Shown piece by piece: positions 7,934 through 26,967 of a stretch of DNA of 30,925 nucleotides. The stretch's first letter is position 1. Each line of letters begins with the position of its first letter. Under the pieces are notes generated by a model. The model saw nothing but the letters and a program-made list of their open reading frames with translations. It did not search any database and had not been told where the DNA came from. The translations under genes and the position numbers were made by a program. This DNA is from a virus (lineage: Duplodnaviria > Caudoviricetes), in the IMG/VR virus record IMGVR_UViG_3300028906_000010, positions 1 to 30,925 of that record; one strand, 5' to 3'.

Positions 7934-9235
7934 CTAGTAGCTCGGGACCGCGTTGACCAGCGTGATCTTCGTGGCGGACTTGCCGCCGGACGCGCCGGTC
8001 AGCGGCCCGGTGAACGGGGTGCAGGTGAAACTCGCCGCGGTGTGCGGCGCGTTGCCGGACACGTCGTAGCCGAACAGCTCCGAGGAGTCGTTCAGGTCGG
8101 CGGCCAGGTAGGCGCCGAACCCGATGTCGATGGTCACGGAGACGAGGTTGGCTCCGGACAGGCCGTTGCCCGCGATGAACTCGAGCTGCGGCTGGACGTT
8201 GGTCAGCATGTTCGTCAGCGCCGTGTCGTCGATGCTCGGCGAGAACGTGAGCTTGAACGGGATGTCGTCCTGCTTGCCGCGGCCGATGACGAACGGGGGC
8301 TGGGTGCCGTCGTTGGTGTTGTACGCCTTGACCGCGCGGGGGATCGTCACCGACCATTCGGCGGTGTTCTTGACCTGGGTGCCGGAGGATGCGACGCCGC
8401 CGACGCCGACCGCGGAGCGCCACGACGGGTAGGGCAGCACCGAGGAGACGTTGGTCGTGGCCACGGCCGAGCCGGGAACGGACCGGGTCTGGCAGACGGC
8501 CTTGCCGGTCCAGGCGAGCAGCTTCTCGGAGTTTCCGGTGATGGTCAGCTCGGACAGGCACGAGTACGAGTACTGGTCGGCCAGGCCCGTCGCGGGGATG
8601 CCGGTCCGGTCGGTGATGGTGTGCGTGGGCGGCTGCGCGGCCTGCCCGGCGTAGGGCGCGCCGACCAGGCCGTTGAGCAGCGAGAACGAGTGGGTGTACG
8701 GGGCGGTGGTGTTGTTCACCGTCATCGTCGTGGCGTGGGCGAACCGGGTGGCCTGCCCGGCCGCGAGGACGATCGACGTGGCCGTCGACCCGGAGCCGAC
8801 CTGCACGATCTCGGGCGCGGCGGGCGAGCCGGTGTCGACCAGCTCGACCCACATGCCGTTGGTGAACGACGCGCCGCCGGAGACGACGGGGATGGCGGTG
8901 AGCCCGGCGGCCATGGTGCCGGACGTGGTCGCGGTGGGGCTGGCGGTGGTGCCGGTGACGGTGTAGTCGCCGAGGATGTTGTACAGGAAGTGGCCGAACG
9001 TGTCGCCGAACACGCTGCCGCCGATGTCGTACCCGGCGATGAGGGGACCCTGGTAGACGCCGTAGCTGCCGCCCATGGACCCCTGGAAGCTTTCGTCCTT
9101 GAGCCAGATGGGCTTGTTGGACGGCTTGAGGCTGGTGAACGGGACGGGCACGCCGACGGTCGCCGGAGGGGTGCCGGGCGTGGCTTCCTTGATTATGTAG
9201 AGTTCCCGTTCCTGGACCGGAAAGAGCGCGACCAC
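7934..9235 (-). CDS. Major tail (tube) protein with inserted beta domain (433 aa)
   Basis: N-terminal IIKEATPGTP, PYTHSFSLLNG, AQPPTHTITD; position between terminator-like gene and chaperone. Confidence 0.88.
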   Translation of the reverse strand: MVALFPVQERELYIIKEATPGTPPATVGVPVPFTSLKPSNKPIWLKDESFQGSMGGSYGVYQGPLIAGYDIGGSVFGDTFGHFLYNILGDYTVTGTTASPTATTSGTMAAGLTAIPVVSGGASFTNGMWVELVDTGSPAAPEIVQVGSGSTATSIVLAAGQATRFAHATTMTVNNTTAPYTHSFSLLNGLVGAPYAGQAAQPPTHTITDRTGIPATGLADQYSYSCLSELTITGNSEKLLAWTGKAVCQTRSVPGSAVATTNVSSVLPYPSWRSAVGVGGVASSGTQVKNTAEWSVTIPRAVKAYNTNDGTQPPFVIGRGKQDDIPFKLTFSPSIDDTALTNMLTNVQPQLEFIAGNGLSGANLVSVTIDIGFGAYLAADLNDSSELFGYDVSGNAPHTAASFTCTPFTGPLTGASGGKSATKITLVNAVPSY

Positions 9236-10097: not shown

Positions 10098-10103
10098 TAC
10101 CAT
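10098..10103 (+). promoter_or_regulatory. Putative -10 element TACCAT of a leaderless promoter for the plus-strand gene
   Basis: TANNNT hexamer followed by 6 nt and then ATG at 10110; no Shine-Dalgarno; no clear -35. Confidence 0.55.
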
Positions 10104-10109
10104 CGGGGC

Positions 10110-10430
10110 ATGAGCCTTGACCCGGTTGACCTGGAAGCGCCCGCGAAGCTGCTGCTTCCGCCGGGCACCAGCCCCGCCGCCCGGAACGGCCGGTACATCG
10201 CTGGCCCGCAGCCAGAGGGGACAGTGCGCGTCGTGCTGCACGCGAGCAGCTACGAGGAGCCCGCCGAGTGCCGCCCGTACGACAGCTACCCCTTCGCCCC
10301 GATGGCCTACCAGGTCTATGACCTGCCGGCGGAGACCGTTGAGCGCTGGAAAGCGGCCGCAGAGGCGTTCGACGCCATGCAAGAGGAGATCGAGGCGACG
10401 ATCAGCGCGCGGGCCCAGCCGCCCGCCTAG
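10110..10430 (+). CDS. Small protein with N-terminal MCP-like peptide (106 aa); only plus-strand gene
   Basis: High GC at third codon positions; fills the gap between two minus-strand genes; stop overlaps the convergent stop (CTAG 10427-10430); LDPVDLEAPAKLLLP matches MCP residues 128-142. Confidence 0.85.
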   Translation: MSLDPVDLEAPAKLLLPPGTSPAARNGRYIAGPQPEGTVRVVLHASSYEEPAECRPYDSYPFAPMAYQVYDLPAETVERWKAAAEAFDAMQEEIEATISARAQPPA

Positions 10431-10984
10431 CACGCCAGCCCCCAGTCCAAGGCCCACGCTTCCTCGACCACACCGCGCGCGGGGATGAGGCCGCCCCACG
10501 ACACCATCAGGCCACCGCCGGCCAGCAGCGCCGCGTGACTGCCCTCCTCCAGGTCCAGACCGAGCACCACGCCTGGCAGCACGCTGTCAACAGGGAAGAA
10601 CCCGGCCAGCCGGATGCCGGCCAGCCCGTCGCACGCCGCCGCGTTGAGCGCTTCGGCGATCGTCAGGCCCTCGCCGTGGCGGAGGACCGCCTCGTCGGCC
10701 ACGCGCAGGCCAGTGGTGAACAGCAGGCTGTTGGCCACGGCCGTCATCGCGCACGTCTCGAAGAGGTCGTTGCCGCCGGCCACCCACCCGCCGGAGCACG
10801 GCGCGGCGAGCTTGCGCGCCTTCTTGGCCTTCGCCGTCTTCGCCGGGTGGCGGCGGACGTAGCGCAGGTACTGGGCGTACTGCTTGGCCGACATCTTCGG
10901 CTTCGTCGTGGTCTTCGTCGTGGCGGCGGTCTTCATCACGCCGCCGGGGTTGACCTTCGCCGTGGCGGCAGTCTTCTTGCTCAT
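10427..10984 (-). CDS. Protein with basic Lys/Thr/Ala N-terminus and putative papain-like cysteine peptidase domain (185 aa)
   Basis: GGNDLFETCAMTAVAN ... GSHAALL ... VSWG gives the Cys/His/SWG order of papain-fold enzymes; ORF is secure, function tentative. Confidence 0.55.
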   Translation of the reverse strand: MSKKTAATAKVNPGGVMKTAATTKTTTKPKMSAKQYAQYLRYVRRHPAKTAKAKKARKLAAPCSGGWVAGGNDLFETCAMTAVANSLLFTTGLRVADEAVLRHGEGLTIAEALNAAACDGLAGIRLAGFFPVDSVLPGVVLGLDLEEGSHAALLAGGGLMVSWGGLIPARGVVEEAWALDWGLAC

Positions 10985-11112
10985 GACCGGCTCCGTGGCA
11001 GCATGGACCGCAGGTGGCGCGGCGTGCAGGCGCGGCGGGCTGATCCGGGCCGGCCGGCCGGGGACCTATGCGAACTCCTGCTGCCCTTCGAACGGGTCGT
11101 CGCGCCGCTCAT
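10981..11112 (-). CDS. 43-aa Arg/Ser-rich basic peptide
   Basis: MSGATTRSKGSRSSHRSPAGRPGSARRACTPRHLRSMLPRSRS*; ATGA overlaps with both neighbouring genes; below ORF-track cutoff. Confidence 0.55.
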   Translation of the reverse strand: MSGATTRSKGSRSSHRSPAGRPGSARRACTPRHLRSMLPRSRS

Positions 11113-12071
11113 GACCGCCACACAGGCGCATAGGGCTTGAGGTACTCGTAGGCGTCGTTGACGAGGCCGCCGGACTGCCCGTGGTGGCCGCCGGAGGTGC
11201 GCGCGGCGGGCCCGAACCCGGACGCGGGCTCCTCGGCCGAGACGTCGTCGCGCATGAGCAGGGAGACGGTGTACGCGATCACCGCCTGGATGATCTTCCG
11301 GGGGAAGCCGGTTATGCCGGTCTGCGCGGCGTGCGCGAACTGGGTCGGCGCGGCGAGCGGGATGCTCGTCACCGCCGGCGGGATCGCCGGCGTAGCCGGG
11401 ACATAGGTACTGGCCACGGTCAGGGCCTCGCTCGCGCCCGTGGTCGGGTTAGTGTCGCCGACGTCGTAGATCCGCAGCACGTCACCGGGCAGGATGCCCG
11501 TGGGGTCGGTCACGCTCACCGACGCGGCGGCAGAGGTGCACGACGCCGACAGAACAGTGTTCGGGAACCCGGCCACGTACGACCAGGTGACGTACACCGG
11601 CTGCGACGGGCGCACCCTCGGCCCGAACTCCAGCGCCGGGCCGGTGAACTGGCCCAGGCCGCCGCCCGGGCGGAAGGAGACCTGCCGGCCGTCCTCCACC
11701 CACATTGTGGAGTCGGGCAGCGTGTCGGCGCTCATGCTCTCCGGGCTGGAACCCCACGACAGCGACGTGATCGCGCGCACGGGGATGTGCCGCGGCTTGA
11801 TGTACACCCGGCCGCCGCCGCCGGGCCGGGTGCGCTGGTTCTCGCCCTGCACCCAGTGGGCGTGCAGCGGCATGTTCTCGCACGCGCTGATGGCCCAGTC
11901 CGAGGCGGCGAGGAGCGCCTCGCCCAGCTCGTCGACCTGGAGCGCGGCGACGCCGCCGGGTACGAGGTTGTCGAGGTCGAGCCAGGTGGGGTAGGCGGCG
12001 AACCCGGCGGGGGTGAGGTAGGGGACCGCCAGTTCAGACTGTGTCGGCGGGGTCAGGACAGGGATCGTCAC
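11109..12071 (-). CDS. Putative head-to-tail adaptor (320 aa)
   Basis: PYLTPAGF start, LLAASDWAISAC, YVTWSYVAGF, PRKIIQAVI, LKPYAPV end; GAGGAGG Shine-Dalgarno; downstream of capsid genes. Confidence 0.78.
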   Translation of the reverse strand: MTIPVLTPPTQSELAVPYLTPAGFAAYPTWLDLDNLVPGGVAALQVDELGEALLAASDWAISACENMPLHAHWVQGENQRTRPGGGGRVYIKPRHIPVRAITSLSWGSSPESMSADTLPDSTMWVEDGRQVSFRPGGGLGQFTGPALEFGPRVRPSQPVYVTWSYVAGFPNTVLSASCTSAAASVSVTDPTGILPGDVLRIYDVGDTNPTTGASEALTVASTYVPATPAIPPAVTSIPLAAPTQFAHAAQTGITGFPRKIIQAVIAYTVSLLMRDDVSAEEPASGFGPAARTSGGHHGQSGGLVNDAYEYLKPYAPVWRS

Positions 12072-12085
12072 CAGCGGTCACCTCC

Positions 12086-12343
12086 TCAGGTTTCCTTGTG
12101 GGCGGCGCAGCGCCGGTCCGGGCCCGCCCGGCCCTTGCACGGCTTGCCTGCCTTCGTGGTCTCCGAGCAGGACCACGACATCCCGGCGTCCGGGCCGGGC
12201 TCTTCGGGATTCGCGATTCGCGAATCTGCGGGCTCAGGCCGCCAGCCGGGGTCGGGAACGCCGGCGCCTGCCTCATGGACGGGCATGGGCACCTCGCCGG
12301 GATAGGGCCGGGCCGCGGCCGGGTACTGGACGATGCACCTCAT
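12086..12343 (-). CDS. Small protein with C-terminal CCCH Zn motif (85 aa)
   Basis: ATGA overlap with upstream stop; CSETTKAGKPCKGRAGPDRRCAAH. Confidence 0.7.
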   Translation of the reverse strand: MRCIVQYPAAARPYPGEVPMPVHEAGAGVPDPGWRPEPADSRIANPEEPGPDAGMSWSCSETTKAGKPCKGRAGPDRRCAAHKET

Positions 12344-12609
12344 TCGCGCTCGCATTCCGCGCCGCACCGCGAGCAGGTCTTCACGAACGACCCGAACTGG
12401 CACTCCGGGCAGCGCCAGCCGATCGAGCGGCTCGTCGTCCCGGCCTCCGAGGCGATCGCGCCGCCGATCTTCACCGCCTGGCGGGCCGCGGCCGGGGACA
12501 TGTCGAAACTGCCGCCCTGCATGTAGCCCTTCTGGCCGCCGCGGGCGTAGTGGCGGACCCCGTCGAAGTCGACTTCGCGGCAGCCCTCGGCGATGATGAC
12601 GCGCGGCAT
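12340..12609 (-). CDS. Small Zn-ribbon protein (89 aa)
   Basis: RCPECQFGSFVKTCSRCG; start abuts upstream stop. Confidence 0.8.
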   Translation of the reverse strand: MPRVIIAEGCREVDFDGVRHYARGGQKGYMQGGSFDMSPAAARQAVKIGGAIASEAGTTSRSIGWRCPECQFGSFVKTCSRCGAECERE

Positions 12610-12843
12610 TCAGTCGTCCTGCTGGGCGACGACCGGCGTCGTGGCCGCCGCCAGGGTCGCCTCGTCGGTCTCGACCTGGACGGCGTCGGCCGACAGCGAC
12701 GTGTCGCCCGCGGCGAGGATGTCCTGGGCGACGCTCGCGGACGCGTCGGACGCGGCGGCCTCGTCGGCGGCCAGCCCGGACGCCTCGGGGTCGGTGCCGG
12801 GGACGGCCTGGCCGGACTGCTGCTCTGGCCCGCTGATGCTCAT
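12610..12843 (-). CDS. Acidic Ala-rich hypothetical protein (77 aa)
   Basis: Strong AGGAGGAGG Shine-Dalgarno; tiles the operon. Confidence 0.75.
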   Translation of the reverse strand: MSISGPEQQSGQAVPGTDPEASGLAADEAAASDASASVAQDILAAGDTSLSADAVQVETDEATLAAATTPVVAQQDD

Positions 12844-12855
12844 GGCTTCCTCCTC

Positions 12856-13272
12856 CTACACCGGCTGGCCGGACAGCCAGCCCGGCAGCGGCGTGTTCAG
12901 GTTCGCGTAGCACTGGCCGGCGAACGACGCGAGGAACGCGCCGCCCGCGGCCACGGTGTCGGTCAGCGTGCTGGCGCCGGTGTTCCAGGTGGCCAGGCCG
13001 CCGGACACGCCCGCCGCGGACCACGCCCAGGTGGGCGTGGCCACGGTGTAGGCGATCGAGATGGAGCCGTACGCGGGCACGGTGTAGGTCCCGGCCGCGG
13101 TCCCGGCCGTGACGCCGTTGACCGACACGTTGCTGATCGTGGCGCCGTTCGCGCCGATGACGACCTGCACCGGGTAGGCGTTGACGTTCTGCGCGGCCAC
13201 TGTCGTGGCCGGCACGGCAGGCGCTGCGGGAGCCGGCGCCCCGTAGCTGAAGGACTGCGTCGGGGGCGCCAT
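12856..13272 (-). CDS. Putative virion structural/decoration protein (138 aa)
   Basis: TGATG coupling; Ala/Thr/Val/Gly beta-rich composition; two genes after MCP. Confidence 0.65.
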   Translation of the reverse strand: MAPPTQSFSYGAPAPAAPAVPATTVAAQNVNAYPVQVVIGANGATISNVSVNGVTAGTAAGTYTVPAYGSISIAYTVATPTWAWSAAGVSGGLATWNTGASTLTDTVAAGGAFLASFAGQCYANLNTPLPGWLSGQPV

Positions 13273-13658
13273 CAGGTGCCGACCGGCCCGGAGTTGCCCC
13301 CGGTGTTCAGCGCCGTCGCCAGCGTCGCCGAGAACGAGGTCACGTCGGCCGAATGCACGCTCAGGCTCACCGTCGTCGAGGTCACCAGCATCCGGACCTG
13401 GCCTATCTGCGCCTTCTTCAGCGCCGACAGGGAACCCAGGTAGGTGGCGTACGCGGTGCAGACCGCGGCGACCCCGGTGATGGTGAGGCCCTGCGTGTTC
13501 GGCGCGGCCGAGCCCGCCGTCACGGTCACGGCGGACGCAGCCGCAGCCGCGGCGCCGGCCGCGTCGCCCGCGTTGGGCAGCGGCACGGCGGCGACGAGGG
13601 CGACGAGGGGATGCCCCGCGCTCAGCGGGGTGACCGTCTGTCCCATGCCAGTGCTCAC
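13272..13658 (-). CDS. Putative virion structural protein (128 aa; alternative ATG at 13646)
   Basis: GTGA overlap with MCP stop; Ala/Thr/Val-rich. Confidence 0.65.
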   Translation of the reverse strand: MSTGMGQTVTPLSAGHPLVALVAAVPLPNAGDAAGAAAAAASAVTVTAGSAAPNTQGLTITGVAAVCTAYATYLGSLSALKKAQIGQVRMLVTSTTVSLSVHSADVTSFSATLATALNTGGNSGPVGT

Positions 13659-15613
13659 GGCACCAGCCCGACCAGGGCGCCGCTCCAGGCCGGGGCGTAG
13701 AAGATCAGCGTCCCGAGCTGGTAGGTGGACGCGTCGTAGGTGAACTGGATCTGCGGCCACATCTGGTACAGGTAGTCCTGCACGTTCTTCGCGACCACGG
13801 TGTTCGTGATCTCCGAGTCGGGGAACGGCAGGGTCTTCGTCCAGATGATCGACGCGCCGACCGGCATGTACGGGTGGACGTCGAAGTCCACCATGTCGCC
13901 CGTGACCTGGTTGGCGATCCCGTTGACGATCGCGCCGACCTCCATGCCGCCCGTGGCTTCCTGGGTGGGCATGGTGATCCGGTAGGCGGTCGACCCGCCC
14001 GCCGCGGTGCGCACGAACTGGCCCATCGCGGCGCGCACGGCGCCGTCGACGTACACGGTCTGCGGCCGGGCGAGCAGCTTCTGCCCGTAGGCGGTGCCCG
14101 CGGTCCACGGCCAGGCGGTGGCGGGCAGGCCGCCGGTCGACATGGCGTAGTTGCCGGGCTGGGTGCTCGCGCCGTACAGGGCCGCGAACGCGGCCTGCCA
14201 CGGCTTGTCACCGACCGGGGTGGGCGCGGTGCCGCCGATCAGGGTGCTGCCGCCGATCGAGTTCTGCGTGACGGCCGCGGACGCGCCGATCGCGTACGTG
14301 CCGACGTAGCCGGACAGCGACGGGTTGAGGAAGGTGGTCAGCATCCCGTCGTAGCCGTTGGGGTTGGCCGTGGTGTCGGTGATGGTCGCGATCGACGGCA
14401 GTGTCGCGCCGGCCAGGGTGACCGACGTCAGGGTGAGCAGGTTCGACGCCGCGGTGACGCCCGCGTAGGCGGCGGGGACGAAGAGCTGGAAGTAGAACGG
14501 CCCAGCGGTCGCGGAGACGTTGCCGACGTAGATGTTGAAGCCGGTCGCGCCGGACGGCAGCGCGGGCAGGCCGATGGACAGGCACTGCGGCGAGGTGATG
14601 GCCTGGGTGGCCGCGGCGGGTGCCGTGGTCTCGCCGCCGGACGCGACAGCGGTGATGACGACGAAGTAGGTGCCGGTGGTGATCGACCCGCCCGTGGTCG
14701 GCGTCGCGGACGTGGTCGCCGCGGCGGCGGGGGCGGACACCGGGCCGGTGTACCCGGCGGCGGTCGTGCCCCGGCCGTACAGCATGGCGCGTTCCTCGCC
14801 GCCCTTGTGCGCCCACAGCAGCGCGGTGGCGGAGAGCTGGCGGACGTCCTGGTAGCCCTGGCCGATGTAGTACGCCTTGGTCGACACGATGTCGGACAGC
14901 GACAGCTCGGTGTAGGTCACCTGGTGCGCGTCGGCGGCGTAGGTGATCTTCTGGCCGCGCCGCAGGCCCAGGCCGGACGACTGGCCGCCGGTCGTGTTCG
15001 CGTACCCGCCGAACTGCGGCAGGTTGTTCGTGGACTGCGCGGCCGGGTACTCCGACGCCATGAACGGCAGCAGGTCCGGGACGCCGCCGACGCCGGAGTT
15101 CGACCAGCCGAGGATCCGCCGGTACTGGATGGCGGAGCCGATGCCGTCGTTTTCCCTGGGCATGGCGTTGAGGATCGGCGTCTCGCGGGGCACCAGCAGC
15201 TTGGCCGGGCCTTCGAGGTCGATCGGGGCGAGCTGCGCGGGCACGGTCAGCGACGTCGACTCGGGGAAGCTGGCGTCCCAGTCCTTGACCAGCGACTCGC
15301 GCATGGTCTCGATCTGCGCCGACATCGCGGCGAGCTGCTCGGAGCCCACGGACTTGGTGAGCTGCTCGAGCGCGTCGAGGTTGGCCTTGCGGGTGTCCTC
15401 CCAGCCCTTCGGCGGCCGGACACCCTTCATGATCTTCCCCTTGCCGGGGAAGTAGTCGCGGCCCTCGTCGGCGCGCGCGATCGACTTGGCGATGCCGTCG
15501 TCGCCGTTGATGTACTCCTCGAACGCCTTCGTCAGCTCCGTGCTGGAGCGGTACTCAGGCTCCCAGGACACACCGCGTCGGGAACCGCCGAACAGGTCTT
15601 GCTTGGTGGGCAT
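13655..15613 (-). CDS. Major capsid protein (652 aa; probably HK97 fold, SU10-like family) with inserted Ig/Fn3-like domain
   Basis: IDLEGPAKLLVPRETPILNAMPR, EERAMLYGRG, VHPYMPVG, APAWSGALVG; insertion GGSITTGTYFVVITAV...GATGFNIYVG; follows protease and scaffold genes. Confidence 0.9.
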   Translation of the reverse strand: MPTKQDLFGGSRRGVSWEPEYRSSTELTKAFEEYINGDDGIAKSIARADEGRDYFPGKGKIMKGVRPPKGWEDTRKANLDALEQLTKSVGSEQLAAMSAQIETMRESLVKDWDASFPESTSLTVPAQLAPIDLEGPAKLLVPRETPILNAMPRENDGIGSAIQYRRILGWSNSGVGGVPDLLPFMASEYPAAQSTNNLPQFGGYANTTGGQSSGLGLRRGQKITYAADAHQVTYTELSLSDIVSTKAYYIGQGYQDVRQLSATALLWAHKGGEERAMLYGRGTTAAGYTGPVSAPAAAATTSATPTTGGSITTGTYFVVITAVASGGETTAPAAATQAITSPQCLSIGLPALPSGATGFNIYVGNVSATAGPFYFQLFVPAAYAGVTAASNLLTLTSVTLAGATLPSIATITDTTANPNGYDGMLTTFLNPSLSGYVGTYAIGASAAVTQNSIGGSTLIGGTAPTPVGDKPWQAAFAALYGASTQPGNYAMSTGGLPATAWPWTAGTAYGQKLLARPQTVYVDGAVRAAMGQFVRTAAGGSTAYRITMPTQEATGGMEVGAIVNGIANQVTGDMVDFDVHPYMPVGASIIWTKTLPFPDSEITNTVVAKNVQDYLYQMWPQIQFTYDASTYQLGTLIFYAPAWSGALVGLVP

Positions 15614-15662
15614 GGCCGGGTCACTCCAGAGGTTTCAGGGCGCGCCCGGCGGGGCGAGAGTG

Positions 15663-16733
15663 TCAGGCCGTGAGCTTGGCGGCCCTCTCATCGGTTTCGC
15701 GGGCGAGCTGGCGGTAGCCTTCGCGGTCCCCCGGGTCCGTGGCCGCGTCGGCCTTGGCCCGGTAGAGCGCTGCCTTGGCGGCCAGGTCCTCGCTGCCGGC
15801 GCTCGCGCTGCCGGAAGGGCGCGCGTTCGCGGACATGACGGGACCGCCGGGGATTGCTGTCGACTTGATCAGCTCTCTGAGCTGGCCGACTTCCGCCTTA
15901 GCCTCTGCCGCCTGAGCCTCGGCCTGCTTGATGCGGCCCTCTGAGGCTTCAGTGGCCTTCGCCACAGCGTCTTCGACGGCCTTCGCGATAGTGCCGTCCG
16001 GGTCAGTTTGCACGCTGGTCTCGCCTTCCGCAACCGCGGACTTGCCCGCGTCGTCGCTCACATCGATGCCGAACTTCTTCGCCGCGGCGTGAACCTTGGC
16101 CTTGGCCTTGTCACCGAACGGGCTGGACGGCAGCCGGGCCAGCGCGTTCTGCGCGTGCGCCTTGTCGTGGACGGGGAAGTGGCGCTTGGACCGCGGCGTG
16201 GTCTTGCCGTCGGCGTCTTTCTTGCCGCCGTCCTCGATGTAGGCGAACGCCGAGTCGGGCAGGTCGTCCTGGTCGGCCGACGACATCGCGGCCTTGACCG
16301 CGTCGGCCAGCGCGGTGCTGGCCATGACGACGCCGTCCCACGCGCCCTGCTGCGCCGGGGCCGACTCCCGCGAGATCCAGCAGTTGATCATGCTGGCCGC
16401 GTCGTTGAGCAGCCCGACGTCGCACGTCTCGCCGTACGACCCGGCGGCGATCTCGTCGGCCTCGTTGGCGATGGCCTTGCCGAGCAGCACCATGATCTGC
16501 TGGCCCAGGTCGATGTCGGGGGCCTCGTCGATCTTCCCGCGGGTGACGGCCTTGACGGCCAGGTCCACGGCGGACGGCTCGGCCGGGTCAGCGGCGGCGG
16601 CTGGGGCGTCCTCAGCCGCGACACCCTTCATGATCAGGTGCGGGAAGCCGTTGGCGCCCATCGGGACGCCCTTGACCGACTCCACGTCGATGATCTCGAA
16701 CTCCGTGACCTCGTCCTCAGTGGCGGTGTCCAT
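15663..16733 (-). CDS. Putative scaffolding/head maturation protein with DUF6582-like domain (356 aa)
   Basis: ATG at 16733; DLPDSAFAY...RHFPVHDKAHAQNALARL...AAAKKFGI; C-terminal coiled coil; between protease and MCP. Confidence 0.7.
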   Translation of the reverse strand: MDTATEDEVTEFEIIDVESVKGVPMGANGFPHLIMKGVAAEDAPAAAADPAEPSAVDLAVKAVTRGKIDEAPDIDLGQQIMVLLGKAIANEADEIAAGSYGETCDVGLLNDAASMINCWISRESAPAQQGAWDGVVMASTALADAVKAAMSSADQDDLPDSAFAYIEDGGKKDADGKTTPRSKRHFPVHDKAHAQNALARLPSSPFGDKAKAKVHAAAKKFGIDVSDDAGKSAVAEGETSVQTDPDGTIAKAVEDAVAKATEASEGRIKQAEAQAAEAKAEVGQLRELIKSTAIPGGPVMSANARPSGSASAGSEDLAAKAALYRAKADAATDPGDREGYRQLARETDERAAKLTA

Positions 16734-16735
16734 GT

Positions 16736-17275
16736 TCAGTCCCTCAGGTTCGCTAGAGATTCCTTCGACGGCTTGCGCCGCTTCGCACCGCCCTCGACGG
16801 ACACGCCGCCGATCTTCCCCGCCTTGATCGCGTCCCACGCGGGCTCGGTCCAGATGAACCCGCCGAGCCAGTCACCCGCCTTGATCATCACGTCGTCGGA
16901 CACCTGCCAGTCCGGCCCGCGGTAGATGTACGACTCGACGAGGTCGGCCGCGCCCTGCTGCAGCAGCTCCGTGCCGACGCTGGCGGCCTGCTCGGGGGTG
17001 TGGCACAGTCCGACCGCGCGGTGGTTGCGCATGTAGTTCCACGCGGCGTCCTCGACGACGGCCTTGCTGGCGAAGTCGCGGTGCTTGTCCATCGCGCGGA
17101 CCACGTCGGCCTTGTCCGCCGGGTAGATCACGTTCAGGGTAAAGCGCCGCTCTGGCTCGGCCTTGGCCAGCGCGCCGATACTGACGGTCTCGCCGTCCCA
17201 GGTGGCCGCGCTCTTGGCCGCGCCGGTCTCAACGGTGACGGTGCCGTCCGGCTTGACGGTGGTCTTCGTGCTCAC
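16736..17275 (-). CDS. XkdF-like putative prohead serine protease (179 aa)
   Basis: GTGA overlap; ERRFTLNVIYP...DKHRD...EDAAWNYM...VGLCH...LVESYI...WDAIKAGKIGGVSVEG. Confidence 0.85.
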   Translation of the reverse strand: MSTKTTVKPDGTVTVETGAAKSAATWDGETVSIGALAKAEPERRFTLNVIYPADKADVVRAMDKHRDFASKAVVEDAAWNYMRNHRAVGLCHTPEQAASVGTELLQQGAADLVESYIYRGPDWQVSDDVMIKAGDWLGGFIWTEPAWDAIKAGKIGGVSVEGGAKRRKPSKESLANLRD

Positions 17276-17544
17276 ATGCGCTCCTTCGGCTTGGCCGGCG
17301 GCGCGAGGTGGTGCGCGTGCCCGGTGTGGTGCTCGAACACATCGGCCGCGATCTGCCGCGCGTCCTCGGCCACTTTCTTGATGTCCCGCAGGTCGGCCTG
17401 CGCGCCGAAGTGCCTGCGCCACCATGCGGCGATGGGCTTGCGGAACACGACGGTGAACGTGACGGCGAGCGCGCCGCAGACGGGGGTGGCGGCGACGTTC
17501 CCGCCGATGTAGTCCCAGTACGCGGACAGCCAGTGAGGGATCAT
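17272..17544 (-). CDS. Small single-pass membrane protein (90 aa)
   Basis: ATGA overlap; hydrophobic NVAATPVCGALAVTFTVVF followed by RK. Confidence 0.7.
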   Translation of the reverse strand: MIPHWLSAYWDYIGGNVAATPVCGALAVTFTVVFRKPIAAWWRRHFGAQADLRDIKKVAEDARQIAADVFEHHTGHAHHLAPPAKPKERM

Positions 17545-17753
17545 CGTTTGCCCCCGAACCCGAACGGGCGCTCGTGCGCGGCGACGGCCGGGCTGCGCTT
17601 GTCGTGGTCCCACGACGGTGCCCGCTCGGTGTCGGCGGCGGTGACGCTCGGCAGTTGCGCCGGGCCGTCGTCAGCAGGCACAGCGGTCAGCCTGCGGTAC
17701 TCGGTGATGATGTCGTTCGCGACGGTGGCGGCCAGGCGGCCGAGCAGGCTCAC
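17541..17753 (-). CDS. Hypothetical protein (70 aa)
   Basis: GTGA overlap with MuF stop; VSLLGRLAATVAND...ERPFGFGGKR. Confidence 0.7.
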   Translation of the reverse strand: MSLLGRLAATVANDIITEYRRLTAVPADDGPAQLPSVTAADTERAPSWDHDKRSPAVAAHERPFGFGGKR

Positions 17754-18526
17754 GACACACCAGCCAGGGCAGGCAGTGCGGCCGGGATCAGCGCGCACCG
17801 GCAGCGAGGATGGCCGGGCGGCATCAGGTTCCCCGACGGGAACGCCGTGTGGATCGGCACCGGCCCGGCCGCCTCGTCCGCGTCGCACGCCGGGCACACC
17901 TTCGCGTCCTCCGCCGTCGACCACTCCACCCGCTCAACCGCCGACTCGGCGTACTCCCGCAGCGCCGCCGACGACTGAGCCCGCGCGATCTCCGTCTGCG
18001 CCACCAGCTCAGCCCGCGACGGGTTGTCGAGCACGTCGCGGAGCTGGTCGGCGAGGGACTGCACCGAGAGCGTGATGGGCTTGGGCTGGTCCATCTCCCG
18101 CGTCACCTCATCCGAGGCGAGGGTCTGCTCGAGCACGGCCGACAGTTCCTCAAGCCGCGAGTCCGCGATCGACTTGATCCGGATCCCCGCCTCGGCCAGG
18201 AGCTGGCGCAGGCCCGGCCCGGCGATCTCCTGCGCCGCCTCGTAGTCGCCCGGCGTCCACGTCCCCCAGTCAGGGGTCTCCAGGCCCGCTGTGAGCGCCT
18301 CAGCGCTCCGCTGGCCCAGCACCCACGCCTCCGGCCACAGCCGGTCGAGCACGCGGCGCAGCGCAGCGGTGATGGCCTCACGGGCCCGGCTCAGGAACTG
18401 CGCCAGCGCGGGCCGGCTGACACTGCCCGTGCCCTTCGGGTGCAGCGCGATCCACGCCGCGGCGAGCGCGGCCGGGTCGAACGCCGCCGCCAGGGCGTCG
18501 CGGAGCTGCTTCGCGTAGATGGCCAT
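17750..18526 (-). CDS. MuF (SPP1 gp7-like) minor head protein (258 aa from ATG 18526; also reachable from portal by -1 frameshift)
   Basis: RAELVAQTEIARA, EWSTAEDAKVCPAC, PPGHPRCRC motifs; TGATG overlap with portal stop. Confidence 0.92.
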   Translation of the reverse strand: MAIYAKQLRDALAAAFDPAALAAAWIALHPKGTGSVSRPALAQFLSRAREAITAALRRVLDRLWPEAWVLGQRSAEALTAGLETPDWGTWTPGDYEAAQEIAGPGLRQLLAEAGIRIKSIADSRLEELSAVLEQTLASDEVTREMDQPKPITLSVQSLADQLRDVLDNPSRAELVAQTEIARAQSSAALREYAESAVERVEWSTAEDAKVCPACDADEAAGPVPIHTAFPSGNLMPPGHPRCRCALIPAALPALAGVS

Positions 18527-20559
18527 CAGCTCGAGGTCCCAGCGCCAGCCAGGCCAGCCCTGGCCGCCTCTTTTGGGCCGCCGCTGGCACCGTCCTTGAA
18601 CAGCACCCGCTCGTCGGCGGCCATGTCCGGGGCCAGCGCCGGGGCGGCGGCCTTGGTGACCACCGCGCACGCGAACCGGCCGCGCTGGCCGCCCTTGCGG
18701 GCCCACCGCCGGTAGGCGGCCACCTCGGCGGCGGCCGAGCCGGGAAGCTCCTCCTCGGTGGCGGTCATGGCCCGGGCCAGGATCGCGGCCTGGTGGGCCT
18801 GGTAGCCGAGCGTCGCGCCCGTGGCCTTGGCCGTGCCCGGCTTCGGCTTCTGGCCGGGCTTCTGCGCCGGAGGCTCGTCCTGGTCCTCGCCGTCGTCCGG
18901 CTGGCCAGCCTGCCCGGGCGGGCCGTTCTGGCTCGCGCTGTCCCCCGGGTCGCCCGGCTTCACCGCGGCCGGCTGGATCAGCGTCCCCGGCGGCGCCAGC
19001 TCCGACGCGCCCTCGATGAACACGATGCCGCGGTCCCCGGTGATCATCGGCATGTCGGCCTCGGGGAAGTCGTACGCGGGCTCGCCGCGCCGCGCCCGGT
19101 CCTCGTTCAGCGTCAGCCGGCCACTGCTGGCCTGCGCCGCCGCCACCGCGTCCGCCGCCGCCTCGTCCTCGGACTCGAGGCCCAGGATCTTCACCATGAG
19201 CTGGCCGGGCATGGCCAGGTGACGGCGGGCCAGCTTCGTCGCGATCCGGCTCACCCACTGGCTGTCCGGGATGCGCGTGATCCGGTTGAGAACGTCCTCC
19301 TCGCCTTCGTGGAACGACGCGCCCAGGCTGCCGACCTCGGGGAAGCCGAGCTCGGTGGCGGTCATGCCGAAGTCGCCCGCGATGAGCTTGACCAGGAACA
19401 TGTCATATTCCGGCTTGTACTGCTCGGGGATCGTCGCGGACTGGACCGGCTTGGTGCCCGGCGGGAACAGCGGGAACTTCAATCTCTCGCTCGTGTTGCC
19501 GCCGAGGTGGTCGTTCAGCGCGGCCTGCCACGCCTCCCACATGCCGACGTCCCAGTCGGTGGCGCCGTCGACCTCGACGTGCGCGGCGGGCATCACGCCC
19601 TCCGTGTACTCCGACAGGATCCAGCCCATGCGCCGCATCCACACGATGCCGTCGAGCAGGGCAATCTCGCAGGCGCTCATGCCGTACGGGGTCTTGGGCC
19701 GGTAGACCGTCCGCTCGTACAGCAGCTCGTCCGAAGCGAAGCCGGGCACCACGGGCTTGCCGTCCGGGCCGGGCACGGTCGTCGCGGAGAACTCGCCGCG
19801 GGGGAAGCCGTACAGGATCTGCTGCGCGAACGGGAACGGCGGCGCGGGCCGGGCCCCGTACTCGTCGAGCAGCGGCTTGATCGTCGAGCCGTCGACCACG
19901 CGCAGCGCCAGCAGGTCACCGCTGTAGGACACCTGCGGGTAGACGGCGACCGCGTCGTAGACCAGGCGGTTCTCCATCAGCGCCTTGGTCCACGCGGTCC
20001 AGTCCTGGTCGTTCTGCGCGTCGGGGGTTTCCAGCCAGTCCGAGATGCGGACGATGTCGGCGGCGTACTTGTCCCGCAGGCCGGCCTCGACATCCTTTTC
20101 GTGCTGGCCGGCGGCCGCCGCTTCCCGCGCTACGGCCTTCGGGTCGACGACGACCTGGAAGTCCAGGTCGCAGATGCCCTTCCTGCGCTCGATGCACTTG
20201 CGGAACAGCGGCATATCAGCCGCCTCGGACAGTACGCGCCAGGGGACGTACGGGGCGGTGCCGATGTTGATGTTGGAGCTGATGGGCAGCTCGAACAGGC
20301 GGGGCTCGGCGCGGCCGGTGTCGGCGCGGCGCCGGTTGATGGGGGCGGGGACGAGGGGGCTGCCGGGCGGGAACGCGTCGGCGGACCACTGGGCCGGGCG
20401 GGGCATGGGTGCGGCGAGCTGGCCGGCGCGCTGCTGGGCGAGGAGGATCCCGGCGAGCTGGTCGCCGGTGAGGGTGACGCCGCCGGGGTTGGCGGGCGGG
20501 CGGCGTGCCTTCACGGCAACGGTGCCCCGATGCCGGTTGCGGTTGCTGCGCCTGCTCAC
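18526..20559 (-). CDS. Portal protein (677 aa)
   Basis: ALRVVDGSTIKPLLD, PYGMSACE, YTEGVMP, LTLNEDRARRGEP motifs; between terminase region and MuF. Confidence 0.93.
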   Translation of the reverse strand: MSRRSNRNRHRGTVAVKARRPPANPGGVTLTGDQLAGILLAQQRAGQLAAPMPRPAQWSADAFPPGSPLVPAPINRRRADTGRAEPRLFELPISSNINIGTAPYVPWRVLSEAADMPLFRKCIERRKGICDLDFQVVVDPKAVAREAAAAGQHEKDVEAGLRDKYAADIVRISDWLETPDAQNDQDWTAWTKALMENRLVYDAVAVYPQVSYSGDLLALRVVDGSTIKPLLDEYGARPAPPFPFAQQILYGFPRGEFSATTVPGPDGKPVVPGFASDELLYERTVYRPKTPYGMSACEIALLDGIVWMRRMGWILSEYTEGVMPAAHVEVDGATDWDVGMWEAWQAALNDHLGGNTSERLKFPLFPPGTKPVQSATIPEQYKPEYDMFLVKLIAGDFGMTATELGFPEVGSLGASFHEGEEDVLNRITRIPDSQWVSRIATKLARRHLAMPGQLMVKILGLESEDEAAADAVAAAQASSGRLTLNEDRARRGEPAYDFPEADMPMITGDRGIVFIEGASELAPPGTLIQPAAVKPGDPGDSASQNGPPGQAGQPDDGEDQDEPPAQKPGQKPKPGTAKATGATLGYQAHQAAILARAMTATEEELPGSAAAEVAAYRRWARKGGQRGRFACAVVTKAAAPALAPDMAADERVLFKDGASGGPKEAARAGLAGAGTSS
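18571..18577 (-). other. Putative -1 frameshift slippery heptamer C CCA AAA at the portal/MuF junction
   Basis: In X XXY YYZ phase with portal (GGC CCA AAA GAG); the -1 frame is the MuF frame; identical 10-mer to the tail chaperone site. Confidence 0.7.
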
Positions 20560-20717
20560 AGGTAGCCGCCGGGTGCGGGCTGGGCATCCGCCTTCGGCGT
20601 CGCCGTGGTGGTGACGGTGACCGTCTCGGTGACCAGCGCGCCGTCAGCGTCGTACTCGCGGGTGATCCACTCGGTACGCTGGCCTTGCGGAGGCGGCTGC
20701 GGCGGCGCGTCAGCCAC
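20556..20717 (-). CDS. Hypothetical protein (53 aa)
   Basis: GTG 2 nt after upstream stop; stop overlaps portal start (GTGA); EWITREYDADGALVTETVTV. Confidence 0.65.
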   Translation of the reverse strand: MADAPPQPPPQGQRTEWITREYDADGALVTETVTVTTTATPKADAQPAPGGYL

Positions 20718-20719
20718 GG

Positions 20720-21211
20720 CTAGCCGCCGCTGCGGACGATCGGCCGGCCGTCCGGCGCGAACAGCCCCGTCGGCTTCGGCCCGTCCGCCTGCACCTGCAC
20801 GTGATCCCAGCACGCCGGGACCGCGCACGTGCCCGGCACCGGCCCGGCCGGGGTCTGCACAAGCTGCGTGATGGGCACGTGGGTGATGGCCTTCGCCACG
20901 GCGGGCGGATCGGGAGCGTCCGGCACCGGCTCACCGGCCTGCTGCGCCGTCTGCACCAGCACCTGGTAGGCGCGGACCCGCTGGCGTGCGTCGACCACGC
21001 AGAACCAGCACTCCGGCTGCCACGGCATCTGCGGGAGGAGCTGGCTGAGCATCTGCGCCAGGTGCAGCGCGACTGTCTCGCCGATGACCTGGGCGAGGGT
21101 GTGCTCCGCCGCGCCGACAGCGCCGGGCATGGGCGTGTTGTTCTGCACGCGGCGGCGTTCGGCGCGGGTGCCGTTGACGGTTGGCGGTGCGGTGCCGTTG
21201 CCACTGGCCAA
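20720..21211 (-). CDS. Hypothetical Zn-binding protein (163 aa)
   Basis: TTG start behind GGGGAG; CWFC ... CWDH. Confidence 0.75.
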   Translation of the reverse strand: MASGNGTAPPTVNGTRAERRRVQNNTPMPGAVGAAEHTLAQVIGETVALHLAQMLSQLLPQMPWQPECWFCVVDARQRVRAYQVLVQTAQQAGEPVPDAPDPPAVAKAITHVPITQLVQTPAGPVPGTCAVPACWDHVQVQADGPKPTGLFAPDGRPIVRSGG

Positions 21212-21219
21212 GACGTTCT

Positions 21220-21279
21220 CCCCGCTGTTTGATGCGAACCGTAACAGTGGTTTGATCGTAGCCGCAACGATCAGCGGGG
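21220..21279 (-). promoter_or_regulatory. Intergenic control region with putative -10 TACGAT (21255-21260) and inverted repeats
   Basis: AT-richer gap; TGATCGT-N7-ACGATCA palindrome over the -10; CCCCGCTG/CAGCGGGG arms at 21220-21227 and 21272-21279. Confidence 0.5.
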
Positions 21280-21290
21280 CGGGGCGCTCG

Positions 21291-21680
21291 CTACAGCCCT
21301 GCGGACAGGTCGATCACGTTGCCCTCCTCCAGCACCTGCGAGAGGACATCCGTGAAGCCATCCGGCAGCCGGAAGGCGGTACCCGTGGCATAGGGAACCA
21401 GCCCGCTGCCAGCAGGCAGGTTCGGGTCGACGGTCACATCGATGGGCTCCTGGGGCTGGCGCCGCAGCGCAGCCGCCTTGCTCCGCAGCGAGATGGCGAT
21501 GTCGCGCACCTCGACGGGATGCTCCGCGTGAGCGGTCAGGCTGCTGGCCATCTGGTCGAGGAAGTAGTCGATCCCGCGCATGGCCACGTTCTCGCTCTCG
21601 ACCACGCGCCTCAGGCTGTCCTGGAGCGCGGCAGCAGCGGCCTCGTACTGCTCGCGGGCCCGGCTGATCTCGTCGCTCAC
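21291..21680 (-). CDS. Hypothetical protein with helical N-terminus and MCP-like motif IDVTVDPNLPAG (129 aa)
   Basis: GTGA overlap with upstream stop; motif aligns with MCP VDFDVHPYMPVG. Confidence 0.75.
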   Translation of the reverse strand: MSDEISRAREQYEAAAAALQDSLRRVVESENVAMRGIDYFLDQMASSLTAHAEHPVEVRDIAISLRSKAAALRRQPQEPIDVTVDPNLPAGSGLVPYATGTAFRLPDGFTDVLSQVLEEGNVIDLSAGL

Positions 21681-21931
21681 AGCGCTGGCAGGCCTGTCAC
21701 GAACTGCAACGGTGGTGGCCTCAGCACCGCCAGCCCCGCATAGCAGCGCGTGACCAGCTCCGCCGAGTGCACCTCCAGCCGCCCGCCATGATCCACGGCC
21801 AGCATGCCCTGCGGCATCCACGGGTGGTACTTCACCTCGAACTCGTCATCGAGGCCGTCGCGGGTGATCTGATCCTGCACGACGCCCGCGGTCTCGGAGT
21901 CGGTGTAGATGACGAGCCTGGTGTCGCTCAC
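21677..21931 (-). CDS. Small MCP-fragment-like protein (84 aa)
   Basis: GTG at 21931; VIYTDSETAGVVQDQI...FEVKYHPWMPQGML. Confidence 0.8.
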   Translation of the reverse strand: MSDTRLVIYTDSETAGVVQDQITRDGLDDEFEVKYHPWMPQGMLAVDHGGRLEVHSAELVTRCYAGLAVLRPPPLQFVTGLPAL

Positions 21932-21946
21932 CCCCTCAGCTTGCCA
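21926..21946 (-). repeat. 21-bp direct repeat, copy 1 (TGGCAAGCTGAGGGGGTGAGC) covering the gene start
   Basis: 20/21 identical to 22254-22274. Confidence 0.9.
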
Positions 21947-21980
21947 TGAGCCACATCTGGCCAGCGCCTTTGGAGGATTG

Positions 21981-22259
21981 CTACAGCGGCATGAGGATCT
22001 CGTCGGCGTCGTCGGCCGACTCCGCATGCTCGGCAGCGACCTGCAGCGACGCGAGCGACGTCAGCGCGAACACCTCGTCCGGCGGCATCCACGGGTGGAC
22101 ACGCAACTCAACGTCGCTGCGGCCCGATGCGTCGATAACCGACCGCACGACGCCGGCCAGCTCACCGTACGCACAGACGATGCTGTCTTCCGGCAGGCGG
22201 CCGATCCACCAGGTGATCGCATCCACTGGCGTCGCGCCCGCAGGAACGCCGAAGCTCAC
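21981..22259 (-). CDS. Small MCP-fragment-like protein (92 aa)
   Basis: GTGA overlap with terminase stop; IVCAYGELAGVVRSVI...VELRVHPWMPPDEVFAL. Confidence 0.8.
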   Translation of the reverse strand: MSFGVPAGATPVDAITWWIGRLPEDSIVCAYGELAGVVRSVIDASGRSDVELRVHPWMPPDEVFALTSLASLQVAAEHAESADDADEILMPL

Positions 22260-22274
22260 CCTCTCAGCTTGCCA
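22254..22274 (-). repeat. 21-bp direct repeat, copy 2 (TGGCAAGCTGAGAGGGTGAGC) at terminase 3' end
   Basis: 20/21 identical to 21926-21946. Confidence 0.9.
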
Positions 22275-23719
22275 GACGTCATCGCCTCGAAGTAGCTGCC
22301 CATCGGGTCATGCGGCACCACGTACGCCAGCAGCAGCGCCTCAGCCCGGTCCGGCGACCCGCCCGTCCGCTCCCGGATGTCGTCCTTCGGCTCGATCTGC
22401 ACCCGGCCCTTGATGTCCTCGAAGTACCGCGGCTGCAGCAACTGCGCGATCGTCCGCTCCGAGTCCTCCATCTGCGACAGGTCCCACTCGCGCCGCTGGC
22501 TGCCCATCCGGCCCACGGTCCACCACAGGTCAGCTCTCCGGTTAACGAACTTCACCGGGTCGGTCGCGGCCTCCGCCACGTTGATGCCGTGCACCTCCGC
22601 GTGGTGGTCGCCTCTGGTGCGCATGTTCCGCAGCTCGCCCACCACGTTGAAGCCGACGCCGATCGAGTCGACCTTGACCGCGGTCGCGCCGGTCTCGATG
22701 ATCGCCCTCAGGATCAGCGGCGCGATCTCCTCTGGCCGGTCCGACCGCAGCGTCCACTGCCGGCCCGCCCGGATCCCGCGCCGCTCACGCACCACCGTCT
22801 CGTCACCGCCGCCGCCGACATCGACGCCAAGCTCGACCGGCAGCAGCGCGCTCGCGGGCTGCACGTCGGGGAACTGGCAGGCGAGCAGGTCGGCCACCGA
22901 CACGACCTGGCGCGGGTGGTCGGACGGGAACTCGGCCAGCACCTTCGAGATGTACTTGTAGTCGTCCTCGCCCCACTCGTCGCGCCGGTCGGACTCCCAC
23001 GCTTTCGTGACCAGCGCGCCGCTGACCTGCGGCGGCACTTTCTCGCCGGTGAAGTTCGGGCTGTCAAACACGCTGATCTTGTGTTTCGCCCAGCCGGGAT
23101 GGCCAGGTGCGCACACCTTCGCGAAGTGCGACCCGGGGTTGTCCGGGTTGCCGATCGCGAGGATCCGGCAGTTGTCGGTGGTGGTGACGGTCTCGACCGC
23201 GTTCCACAGCCACTCCGGCACGCCGCTGGCCTCGTCGAGGATCACCAGGACGCCTCCCGCACGGTGATAGCCCTGGAACGTCGCCGGGTCGAAGTCGGAG
23301 CCCTTCGCGTTGTCCGGCGGCTTGCGGCCGATGCCGACCTGACGGCCGCCGATCTTCCACTCGTCGGTGGCCAGCGCCGCGCCGGGCAGTTTCAGCCGGC
23401 CGTGCAGGGCCCGGATCTCCTCCCACAGGATGCCGTGGACCTGGTCGTAGGTGGGCGCCGTGGTGATGAACATCGAGTTGGGCCGGGTGTCCACCCACCA
23501 GCACGCCAGCACCGCCGCGGTGAAGCTCTTGCCCACGGCGTGGCCGGCGCGCACCGTGGTCCGCTTCACGTCCTGCACGCTGGAGGCGATGGCCCGCTGC
23601 GCCGACCAGAAGTCGATGCCGTGGCGCGCCGCCCACTCTTCCGGCCCGGGCGGCGGCTCGATGGCCTTGCGCAACTGGGCGCGGGCCGCGGCCCAGGTGC
23701 GCGTTTCGAGCGTGGTCAC
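22256..23719 (-). CDS. terL: Terminase large subunit (487 aa)
   Basis: GTG at 23719; Walker A AGHAVGKS, Walker B VLVILDEA, IGNP coupling motif, nuclease LGVDVGGGGD and SPDRAEA. Confidence 0.95.
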   Translation of the reverse strand: MTTLETRTWAAARAQLRKAIEPPPGPEEWAARHGIDFWSAQRAIASSVQDVKRTTVRAGHAVGKSFTAAVLACWWVDTRPNSMFITTAPTYDQVHGILWEEIRALHGRLKLPGAALATDEWKIGGRQVGIGRKPPDNAKGSDFDPATFQGYHRAGGVLVILDEASGVPEWLWNAVETVTTTDNCRILAIGNPDNPGSHFAKVCAPGHPGWAKHKISVFDSPNFTGEKVPPQVSGALVTKAWESDRRDEWGEDDYKYISKVLAEFPSDHPRQVVSVADLLACQFPDVQPASALLPVELGVDVGGGGDETVVRERRGIRAGRQWTLRSDRPEEIAPLILRAIIETGATAVKVDSIGVGFNVVGELRNMRTRGDHHAEVHGINVAEAATDPVKFVNRRADLWWTVGRMGSQRREWDLSQMEDSERTIAQLLQPRYFEDIKGRVQIEPKDDIRERTGGSPDRAEALLLAYVVPHDPMGSYFEAMTSGKLRG

Positions 23720-23721
23720 GC

Positions 23722-24246
23722 CTACAGGATGACGCCTGCCTGCCGTGCGAACTGCTGATCGGCGGCCCGGATCACCGCGTCGCGCTGCGCGCCTTCGACT
23801 CCGCCTTCGTCGAGGGCGGTGAGGAACACGGCGATGATCGTGGTGGCCCGGGTCTCGGTGATCTTCGCGAGGCGCTCGTCGATGTCGAGGCGGGCCATGG
23901 CGGTGAGGAACTTCTCGCACCGGTCGAGGGCGCGTTCCCAGACGGCGATCTCGGCGCGGAGCTGCTCGCCGCCCTCGGTCTCGTACCGCATCGAGTCGAG
24001 GGCGTTGACCTTGGCGGCCCAGGAGTCTTTCCAGGCGAGGACCTGGCCGGTTACGGCGGCGAGCTGGGTGAGCGGGTCCTCGACGGGGGGGACGTCGAGG
24101 CGGGCGAGCTGGTCGCGGGCCTGCTGTTCGAGCTTGACGATCGCGGTGCGCCTGCCGAGGTGCATCCGGCACTTGTCAGCGCCGCGGAGTGGCGCTCCGC
24201 CGCACGGCTGGCCGTCCTTGCGCCTGGCGGTGCAGGTGCGGCGCAT
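23722..24246 (-). CDS. terS: Probable terminase small subunit with N-terminal CCCH motif (174 aa)
   Basis: Immediately upstream of terL; CTARRKDGQPC...CRMHLG then helical region LDIDERLAKITE. Confidence 0.8.
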   Translation of the reverse strand: MRRTCTARRKDGQPCGGAPLRGADKCRMHLGRRTAIVKLEQQARDQLARLDVPPVEDPLTQLAAVTGQVLAWKDSWAAKVNALDSMRYETEGGEQLRAEIAVWERALDRCEKFLTAMARLDIDERLAKITETRATTIIAVFLTALDEGGVEGAQRDAVIRAADQQFARQAGVIL

Positions 24247-26804: not shown

Positions 26805-26825
26805 GTCCTGGCGGCCGGTAACGCT

Positions 26826-26951: not shown

Positions 26952-26967
26952 TGGCCGCGCCGCACGT

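Follow-up and report, generated by a model that had tools for sequence, protein, structure and literature searches.

Small capsid-like genes in the late operon of a high-GC tailed phage as possible decoys for capsid-sensing immunity

Given that a tailed phage encodes its major capsid protein (MCP) in full, why would it also keep small separate genes that look like pieces of one? The question is raised by a stretch of 30,925 nucleotides from virus record IMGVR_UViG_3300028906_000010 (hereafter the window), a 30.9-kb fragment of a high-GC tailed phage, in which four small genes, here called A to D, had been predicted to resemble fragments of the MCP. Our comparisons suggest that A, B and C derive from conserved capsid pieces of this phage family and that D probably does too; we tentatively read them as decoys for host proteins that sense capsids. 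The gene positions in the original prediction were correct, with A on the plus strand and B to D within 21291-22259 on the minus strand, like the late genes:

10110-10430, plus strand: gene A, 106 amino acids, with the N-arm motif of the MCP copied at its N-terminus (residues 3-22) and a conserved C-terminal carrier region
21981-22259, minus strand: gene B, 92 amino acids, predicted to be a miniature A-domain; start and terminase stop overlap (GTGA)
21677-21931, minus strand: gene C, 84 amino acids, a paralogue of B with the motif YHPWMPQG
21291-21680, minus strand: gene D, 129 amino acids, probably the whole A-domain in strongly diverged form; start and stop of C overlap its own start

The minus strand also carries the genes for terminase, portal, protease, tail tube and tape measure, as identified by PHROG and Pfam scans. 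No named family matched the gene at 13655-15613, and phmmer found nothing for its product among PDB sequences. Its AlphaFold model (predicted template modelling score 0.69, from a 100-row alignment) has phage capsids as its best Foldseek matches, with E-values down to 3.6e-9, and we therefore assign the gene as an HK97-fold MCP; it lies after the protease and scaffold genes, so that both fold and position are those of such a protein. The regions of the MCP and the neighbouring head genes to which the small genes relate are as follows, the name N-arm reflecting the predicted position of that motif before the E-loop strands in the MCP model:

13655-15613, minus strand: MCP, 652 amino acids, of HK97 fold, helical in its N-terminal region and carrying a beta-rich insertion
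15176-15232, minus strand: N-arm motif of the MCP, residues 128-146, counterpart of the motif in A
13775-14212, minus strand: A-domain region of the MCP, residues ~468-613, counterpart of B, C and probably D; it includes a hairpin and HPYMP turn at residues 560-587
22256-23737, minus strand: terminase large subunit (PHROG 2, E 5.9e-33), start codon uncertain
18526-20559, minus strand: portal protein, of which a segment near residues 485-525 is copied by mini-ORFs (open reading frames) in four related loci

When each small gene was aligned locally with the resident MCP, the score was equalled by 1 of 2000 shuffles for A, 42 of 2000 for B, 6 of 2000 for C and 453 of 2000 for D. We also translated the window and 68 related loci in six frames and screened family profiles against the 11,088 segments outside MCPs. 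The 68 loci include a few near-duplicate pairs and one locus (L014) recovered by searching with B; a locus identical to the window (L013) and 69 MCP ORFs were removed before counting. In this screen A ranked first with the N-arm profile (20.2 bits, the next segment reaching 8.5), and B (16.7 bits), the L014 homologue of B (15.4) and C (10.3) took ranks 1-3 with the A-domain hairpin profile, ahead of the next segment at 4.9. Both motif windows were picked after the fact; full-length profiles with no chosen window returned the same leaders at modest E-values. In the reverse direction, profiles built from the small genes recovered MCP genes, and alignment of B and C with distant MCPs by hhalign gave a probability of 94 and an E-value of 1.3e-7. 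Judged by where they occur, the N-arm and HPWMP motifs are capsid signatures: among viral contigs, 33 of 33 matches of the DLEAPAKLL pattern and 3 of 3 of the ..VHPWMP pattern lay inside MCP genes. Furthermore, when viral contigs were searched with the B/C alignment, 37 candidate stretches came up, and the single one confirmed was another phage's MCP. The predicted resemblance to MCP pieces is thus supported by family profiles for A, B and C and probable for D, for which local tests are weak.

The literal VHPYMPxG motif that had been claimed for three genes is present in none of them; the corresponding sequences are VHPWMPPD in B, YHPWMPQG in C and VDPNLPAG in D. The homologues of A and B do keep MCP-like motifs. 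All four genes have a coding-like pattern, with a GC content of 0.86-0.89 at third codon positions. No family was found for A-D in Pfam, PHROGs or PADLOC, no usable match for A or B in the ESM Atlas, and no significant match for A, B or C among INPHARED phages; the A and B/C profiles found nothing in 401 genomes sampled from the order of genome G001, nor did the B/C profile in five prophage-bearing genomes.

Gene D required a different comparison. Its local alignment to the resident MCP was not significant, and hhalign gave a probability of 7.6. A global alignment of D to 27 representative A-domain segments gave a mean score of 8.6, compared with -19.4 +/- 6.0 for shuffles. None of 500 full shuffles, 500 local shuffles or 3160 control segments scored as high, and the motifs of D came in the right order. 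When D was slid along ten distant MCPs, the best window was the A-domain under three scorings. D is therefore probably a worn copy of the whole A-domain. In a second reading, D would instead have been copied from the N-terminal region of the MCP, for which the L050 sequence gave a score of 71 (equalled by 1 of 300 and 0 of 300 shuffles). Four N-terminal profiles, ranking D at 19-234, did not uphold this; it seems the less likely reading, and we prefer the A-domain.

The original prediction described the genes as mimics of the phage's own MCP. This is only partly right: among 166 family sequences, 36 score above the resident MCP for A, 92 for B and 20 for C. The best foreign match of B scores 74 as against 43 for its own MCP, that of C 65 as against 45, and the HPWMP variant found in both occurs in the MCPs of L012, L089 and L091. 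By these scores the small genes resemble other phages' MCPs more than the resident one, and tracking of the resident MCP was not supported, distant MCPs being the best matches. A recent DNA duplication from the resident MCP was considered and not supported, as only 44 nt at 75% align for A and the protein identity would explain this.

In gene A, the stretch LDPVDLEAPAKLLLPPGT is identical to the MCP stretch LAPIDLEGPAKLLVPRET at 12 of 18 positions, an agreement as good as this arising in 1 of 2000 shuffles. A has two homologues, 51-57% identical, and no relatives were found in viral contigs. The tails of the three family members score 68, 61 and 66 against MCP N-arm variants, compared with 57, 55 and 55 for the best of 60 shuffles (a null based on 26 of 166 MCPs), and a profile of the two homologues alone returned mostly MCP genes, weakly. 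Since the C-terminal region is conserved and the looser tail fits MCP N-arm variants, A looks like a carrier that displays an N-arm peptide. The gene is a clean 350-nt insertion, antisense within the late operon, as the contig of a relative in run X2 joins position 10083 directly to 10434. The following hexamer was noted upstream:

10098-10103, plus strand: TACCAT, a -10-like hexamer 6 nt before the ATG of A and a candidate promoter for a leaderless or near-leaderless transcript

Among the 2155 start-type triplets in the window, this is the sole TAnnnT at 6-nt spacing, which makes it a credible candidate for a promoter of A's own. Next to A, a 185-amino-acid gene with a lysine-rich N-terminus (10427-10984) is missing from most related loci; L004 has a short ORF of similar repeats in the same place, and run X2 contains a relative carrying the 185-amino-acid gene without A.

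Hexamers 6 nt before three of the start codons had been taken as a sign that the genes could be expressed independently of late genes. The hexamers exist and are credible as a promoter element only for A. The CAAGCT before B is terminase coding sequence, also present in L001 and L011, which lack B, and altered to GAGGCT in L014, which has B; the CAAGCT before C lies in a duplicate of the ~21-nt terminase end with which both genes open:

22254-22274, minus strand: junction of the terminase 3' end with the start of B, including CAAGCT
21926-21946, minus strand: copy of this terminase-end/B-start stretch, preceding C

Independent promoters for B and C were rejected on these grounds, and because B and D begin on overlapping stop codons, late co-expression of B-D is the simpler reading. 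B and C themselves align with a score of 66, equalled by 0 of 2000 shuffles. Of the two homologues of B, one lies directly behind terminase in L014; the other, P0005, has an N-terminal extension resembling the start of C, and by this likeness the terminase-end/start unit seems to have been duplicated more than once. Comparison of B with its L014 homologue suggests that purifying selection is concentrated on the capsid-like part:

22083-22166, minus strand: capsid-like 28-codon stretch of B, apparently under purifying selection

Across these 28 codons we counted 8 synonymous and 0 non-synonymous differences at a synonymous divergence (dS) of ~0.5, and the second homologue retains 26 of the 28 residues. 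In the other 40 aligned codons the ratio of non-synonymous to synonymous divergence (dN/dS) was 0.82 (Fisher p 3e-4 for the contrast).

The fold of B was predicted from an alignment of four small-gene rows with no MCP among them. The AlphaFold model is helix-strand-helix-strand-strand, in the same element order as the MCP A-domain, with a local confidence score (pLDDT) of 78-85 over residues 11-60. Against 48,161 chains, residues 136-288 of the phiCD508 capsid ranked second (Z 5.1, root-mean-square deviation (rmsd) 3.0, 76 aligned) and HK97 244-383 gave Z 4.6, rmsd 3.7 and 76 aligned; capsid A-domains overall gave Z 4.5-5.1, rmsd 3.0-3.7 and 72-76 aligned, and 10 of the top 50 rows were capsids or encapsulin. 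Equal scores were obtained for FliH, V-ATPase subunit E and DapB, so the fold is taken as support for the sequence evidence. Foldseek returned no match for B in PDB or BFVD at E <= 0.001, and a second structural comparison within the Foldseek top 1000 had no capsid among 50 rows. The proposed fold check thus came out as a resemblance to HK97 A-domains at a weak Z of 4.5-5.1, and B is predicted to fold as a miniature A-domain.

We next consider how the genes are distributed. Of 35 loci that span the terminase-portal slot, 1 has a B-like gene; of 40 that span the A slot, none has an A-like gene. Contigs of relatives join across the inserts, at 21202/21953 for C and D together and at 21270/22265 for B to D, and run X10 contained short pieces of C-like and D-like DNA. 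A-D are therefore optional inserts with empty-site alleles in relatives, in agreement with the accessory positions first proposed, the joints being those for A, for C+D and for B-D. In L001 (2570-3016) and L011 (2694-3140), an endonuclease-like gene on the minus strand, which from its motifs we take to be of the HNH type, occupies the post-terminase slot that holds B-D in the window; a common small gene of 73-81 amino acids, unrelated to B-D, lies in the terminase-portal slot at L004:4115-4360 and L006:4709-4930.

The practice extends to a second head protein. In 4 of the 68 related loci, stand-alone ORFs of roughly 43-125 amino acids copy one conserved portal segment, scoring 20.1-34.9 bits where the next non-portal segment scores 6.5, and one was confirmed by the PHROG portal profile (E 8e-4). 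Each lies beside a separate portal gene:

L012, 5003-5380: portal-fragment ORF
L061, 919-1284: portal-fragment ORF
L004, 4821-4988: portal-fragment ORF
L006, 2461-2592: portal-fragment ORF

Because these fragments stand alone in four loci, keeping conserved head-protein pieces as mini-genes appears to recur in this phage family, for two head proteins. No convincing fragment genes of scaffold, terminase, tube or protease were found in the window or the 68 loci, and the 18 stretches read from five related virus records contained no additional genes for MCP fragments. In the two short portal-fragment ORFs an arginine-rich stretch precedes the motif. A 668-amino-acid match to the portal profile is probably a diverged portal, and at L004:4670-6859 the N-terminal 86 residues of the portal are matched in another frame, which points to a frameshift or to an error in the sequence.

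Relatives of the MCP at 39-42% identity occur in genomes of Nonomuraea, Actinomadura, Sphaerisporangium, Streptosporangium, Acrocarpospora and Amycolatopsis, and a tyrosine integrase-family gene is present in 5 of 5 related virus records, from which we infer that the host is actinobacterial and the phage temperate; the 42 ORFs scanned in the 31-kb fragment itself include no integrase. Family MCPs in L062 and L065 sit on contigs labelled Nevskia and Saccharimonadales, possibly misbinned, the other matches being actinobacterial.

Several known systems bear comparison with this arrangement. The T4 vertex protein gp24 is a capsid paralogue, full-length and essential, and the Gol peptide, which activates the host defence Lit, is a short segment inside T4 gp23 and not a separate gene. 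The decoy model likens A-D to DSAD1 of the SPbeta/phi3T phages, a small protein competing for an immune sensor with the structural protein that triggers it (PMC11087589); the trigger is the tail tube, and DSAD1 is not described in the available text as a tail-tube fragment, whereas A to C, and probably D, are homologues of capsid pieces. DSAD1 was not among the top structural rows for B, and A-D and DSAD1 were not compared directly. Ccm of SaPIbov5 is likewise a non-essential HK97-fold capsid homologue that acts on another element's head assembly; as described in the available text (PMC8569155), it is satellite-encoded, has a complete HK97 fold, is 24% identical to the helper capsid protein and forms pentamers, whereas A-D are phage-encoded fragments of 84-129 amino acids. 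The homology of A-D is confined to one motif or domain, and the window holds its own terminase, portal, MCP, tail tube and tape measure genes, unlike a satellite. The Ccm-like redirection of assembly first suggested does not fit fragments without a P-domain, E-loop or spine helix. B's predicted fold and hairpin-HP[WY]MP motif correspond to the HK97 A-domain (HK97 gp5 244-383, PDB 1ohg/3qpr; phiCD508, 9gay), but B and C stand alone, lack the long internal loop and have none of those three elements. Finally, gp4 of Patience and Adjutor represents small (54-102 amino acids) actinophage accessory proteins that touch the MCP; the available text presents it as a conserved virion component bridging split hexamers and not as an MCP fragment (PMC11965321). 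A-D would act most like DSAD1 or a truncated Ccm and appear to belong to neither family. Full-text literature searches, mostly of abstracts and with few subscription papers, found no description of phage mini-genes made of capsid fragments, which agrees with the earlier remark that no such panel was known.

What, then, might such genes do? Avs systems sense the portal protein. According to the available text of the respective reports, an MCP is bound by CapRel-SJ46, and the contacts are predicted to lie on loops of the P-domain and A-domain (PMC9712102), Thoeris senses the MCP Mhp (PMC12578639), MCP sensing by immune systems is also covered in a review (PMC13728456), and DSAD1 blocks DSR2 by occupying the site of its trigger (PMC11087589). 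We put at roughly 40% the probability that A, B, C and probably D are look-alike decoys for host capsid-sensing immune proteins. As soluble look-alikes, they would occupy the sensors without triggering them; B-D would be expressed along with the late genes, immediately before portal and capsid, at the time the sensors would fire, and A could be made from its own promoter. Without a P-domain, E-loop or spine helix they would not build shells as Ccm does and could only compete for binding partners. We favour the decoy reading because two head proteins are sampled, the segments are the most conserved ones, the genes are dispensable and B-D are placed for late expression.

Several points weigh against it. 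Escape mutations lie in the P-domain, P-loop and E-loop, outside the copied pieces, in the available text of PMC9712102 and PMC12578639, and a decoy that protects its own phage would perhaps track the resident MCP, which in fact ranks in the middle of the family. D scores 0 against the resident MCP and 43.5 against the best distant one, and the strength of its sliding test depends on the scoring, with 0-4 of 200 full and 0-12 of 200 local shuffles doing as well. B and C are missed by a profile restricted to the first half of the A-domain. The structural match of B is middling, FliH, V-ATPase subunit E and DapB scoring equally. The selection test on B uses a single sequence pair and a stretch picked after viewing the alignment, and in the A family the MCP-like N-terminal tail is invariant at 6 of 20 positions, less than the carrier at 39 of 74.

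The closer match to foreign MCPs (74 against 43 for B, 65 against 45 for C) is what would be expected if the genes were dominant-negative poisons of other phages' head assembly, with the carrier phage spared by the divergence of its own MCP; that the fragments do not track the resident MCP favours this above all for A. The A-domain minis would enter and cap capsomer rings and the tail of A would compete for N-arm binding sites, and in the available text of PMC8569155 A-domains pack around capsomer centres while N-arms touch neighbouring subunits. Expression of A in a lysogen is plausible given the antisense promoter candidate and the integrase genes in 5 of 5 related records, though no integrase is among the 42 ORFs scanned in the fragment, and the start-stop overlaps of B with terminase and of D with C point to late lytic expression, when a competitor would be met only in co-infection. 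The better foreign match could also reflect the source from which the fragments were captured, and we regard poisoning as somewhat unlikely. An accessory role in the phage's own head, as chaperones, capsomer plugs, size modulators or minor virion parts, would suit the terminase-portal position with its apparent translational coupling, the retention of B in the same slot in L014 and the existence of small accessory capsid proteins in actinophages such as Patience gp4 (PMC11965321, available text). It is unlikely, however, as 34 of the 35 loci spanning the terminase-portal slot and all 40 spanning the A slot lack the genes, the match to the resident MCP is weak, and A runs antisense to the late operon.

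A shade less likely again, captured capsid fragments may simply be drifting or have been co-opted for a function other than mimicry, the likeness of D perhaps being chance. The slots are insertion hot spots that also receive an HNH-type gene and unrelated small ORFs, C arose with the terminase-end duplication, and the tail of A varies among homologues. This reading is harder to reconcile with intact frames and a host-like codon pattern, with 0 amino-acid changes in 28 codons of B at dS ~0.5, with the independent fit of all three A-family tails to MCP N-arm variants, and with the recurrence of portal-fragment ORFs in four loci.

Extending the decoy reading, it is conceivable, if short of probable, that phages of this family capture the most conserved head-protein segments from other phages as a modular panel of decoy mini-genes, comprising a capsid N-arm, a capsid A-domain and a portal segment and kept in late-operon slots, by which bacterial immunity that senses such patterns would be blinded or the assembly of rivals jammed. 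Since capsid and portal proteins do not mutate easily, they make good immune triggers; fragment decoys, if real, would be a counter-strategy that needs no change to the capsid. The copied segments would then map the surfaces read by actinobacterial immune sensors, and each mini-gene would be a potential bait for as yet undescribed capsid sensors in Actinobacteria. If foreign assembly were poisoned instead, they would be phage-against-phage weapons and natural probes of HK97 assembly contacts, and a stand-alone A-domain would bear on the modular build of the HK97 fold.

Elsewhere in the window, the tail tube family (7934-9235) and a 320-amino-acid head-tail region family (11109-12071) share a similar internal beta segment, with cross matches of <=22 bits, and a tail protein contains a GDSL lipase/esterase domain (2869-4941). 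Two DNA methyltransferase genes lie at 26022-27053 and 27479-28444, one of them fused to a region like a helix-turn-helix. The GC content falls to 0.61-0.64 at 25001-26000, compared with ~0.71 elsewhere, over a replication-initiation-like gene and its neighbour.

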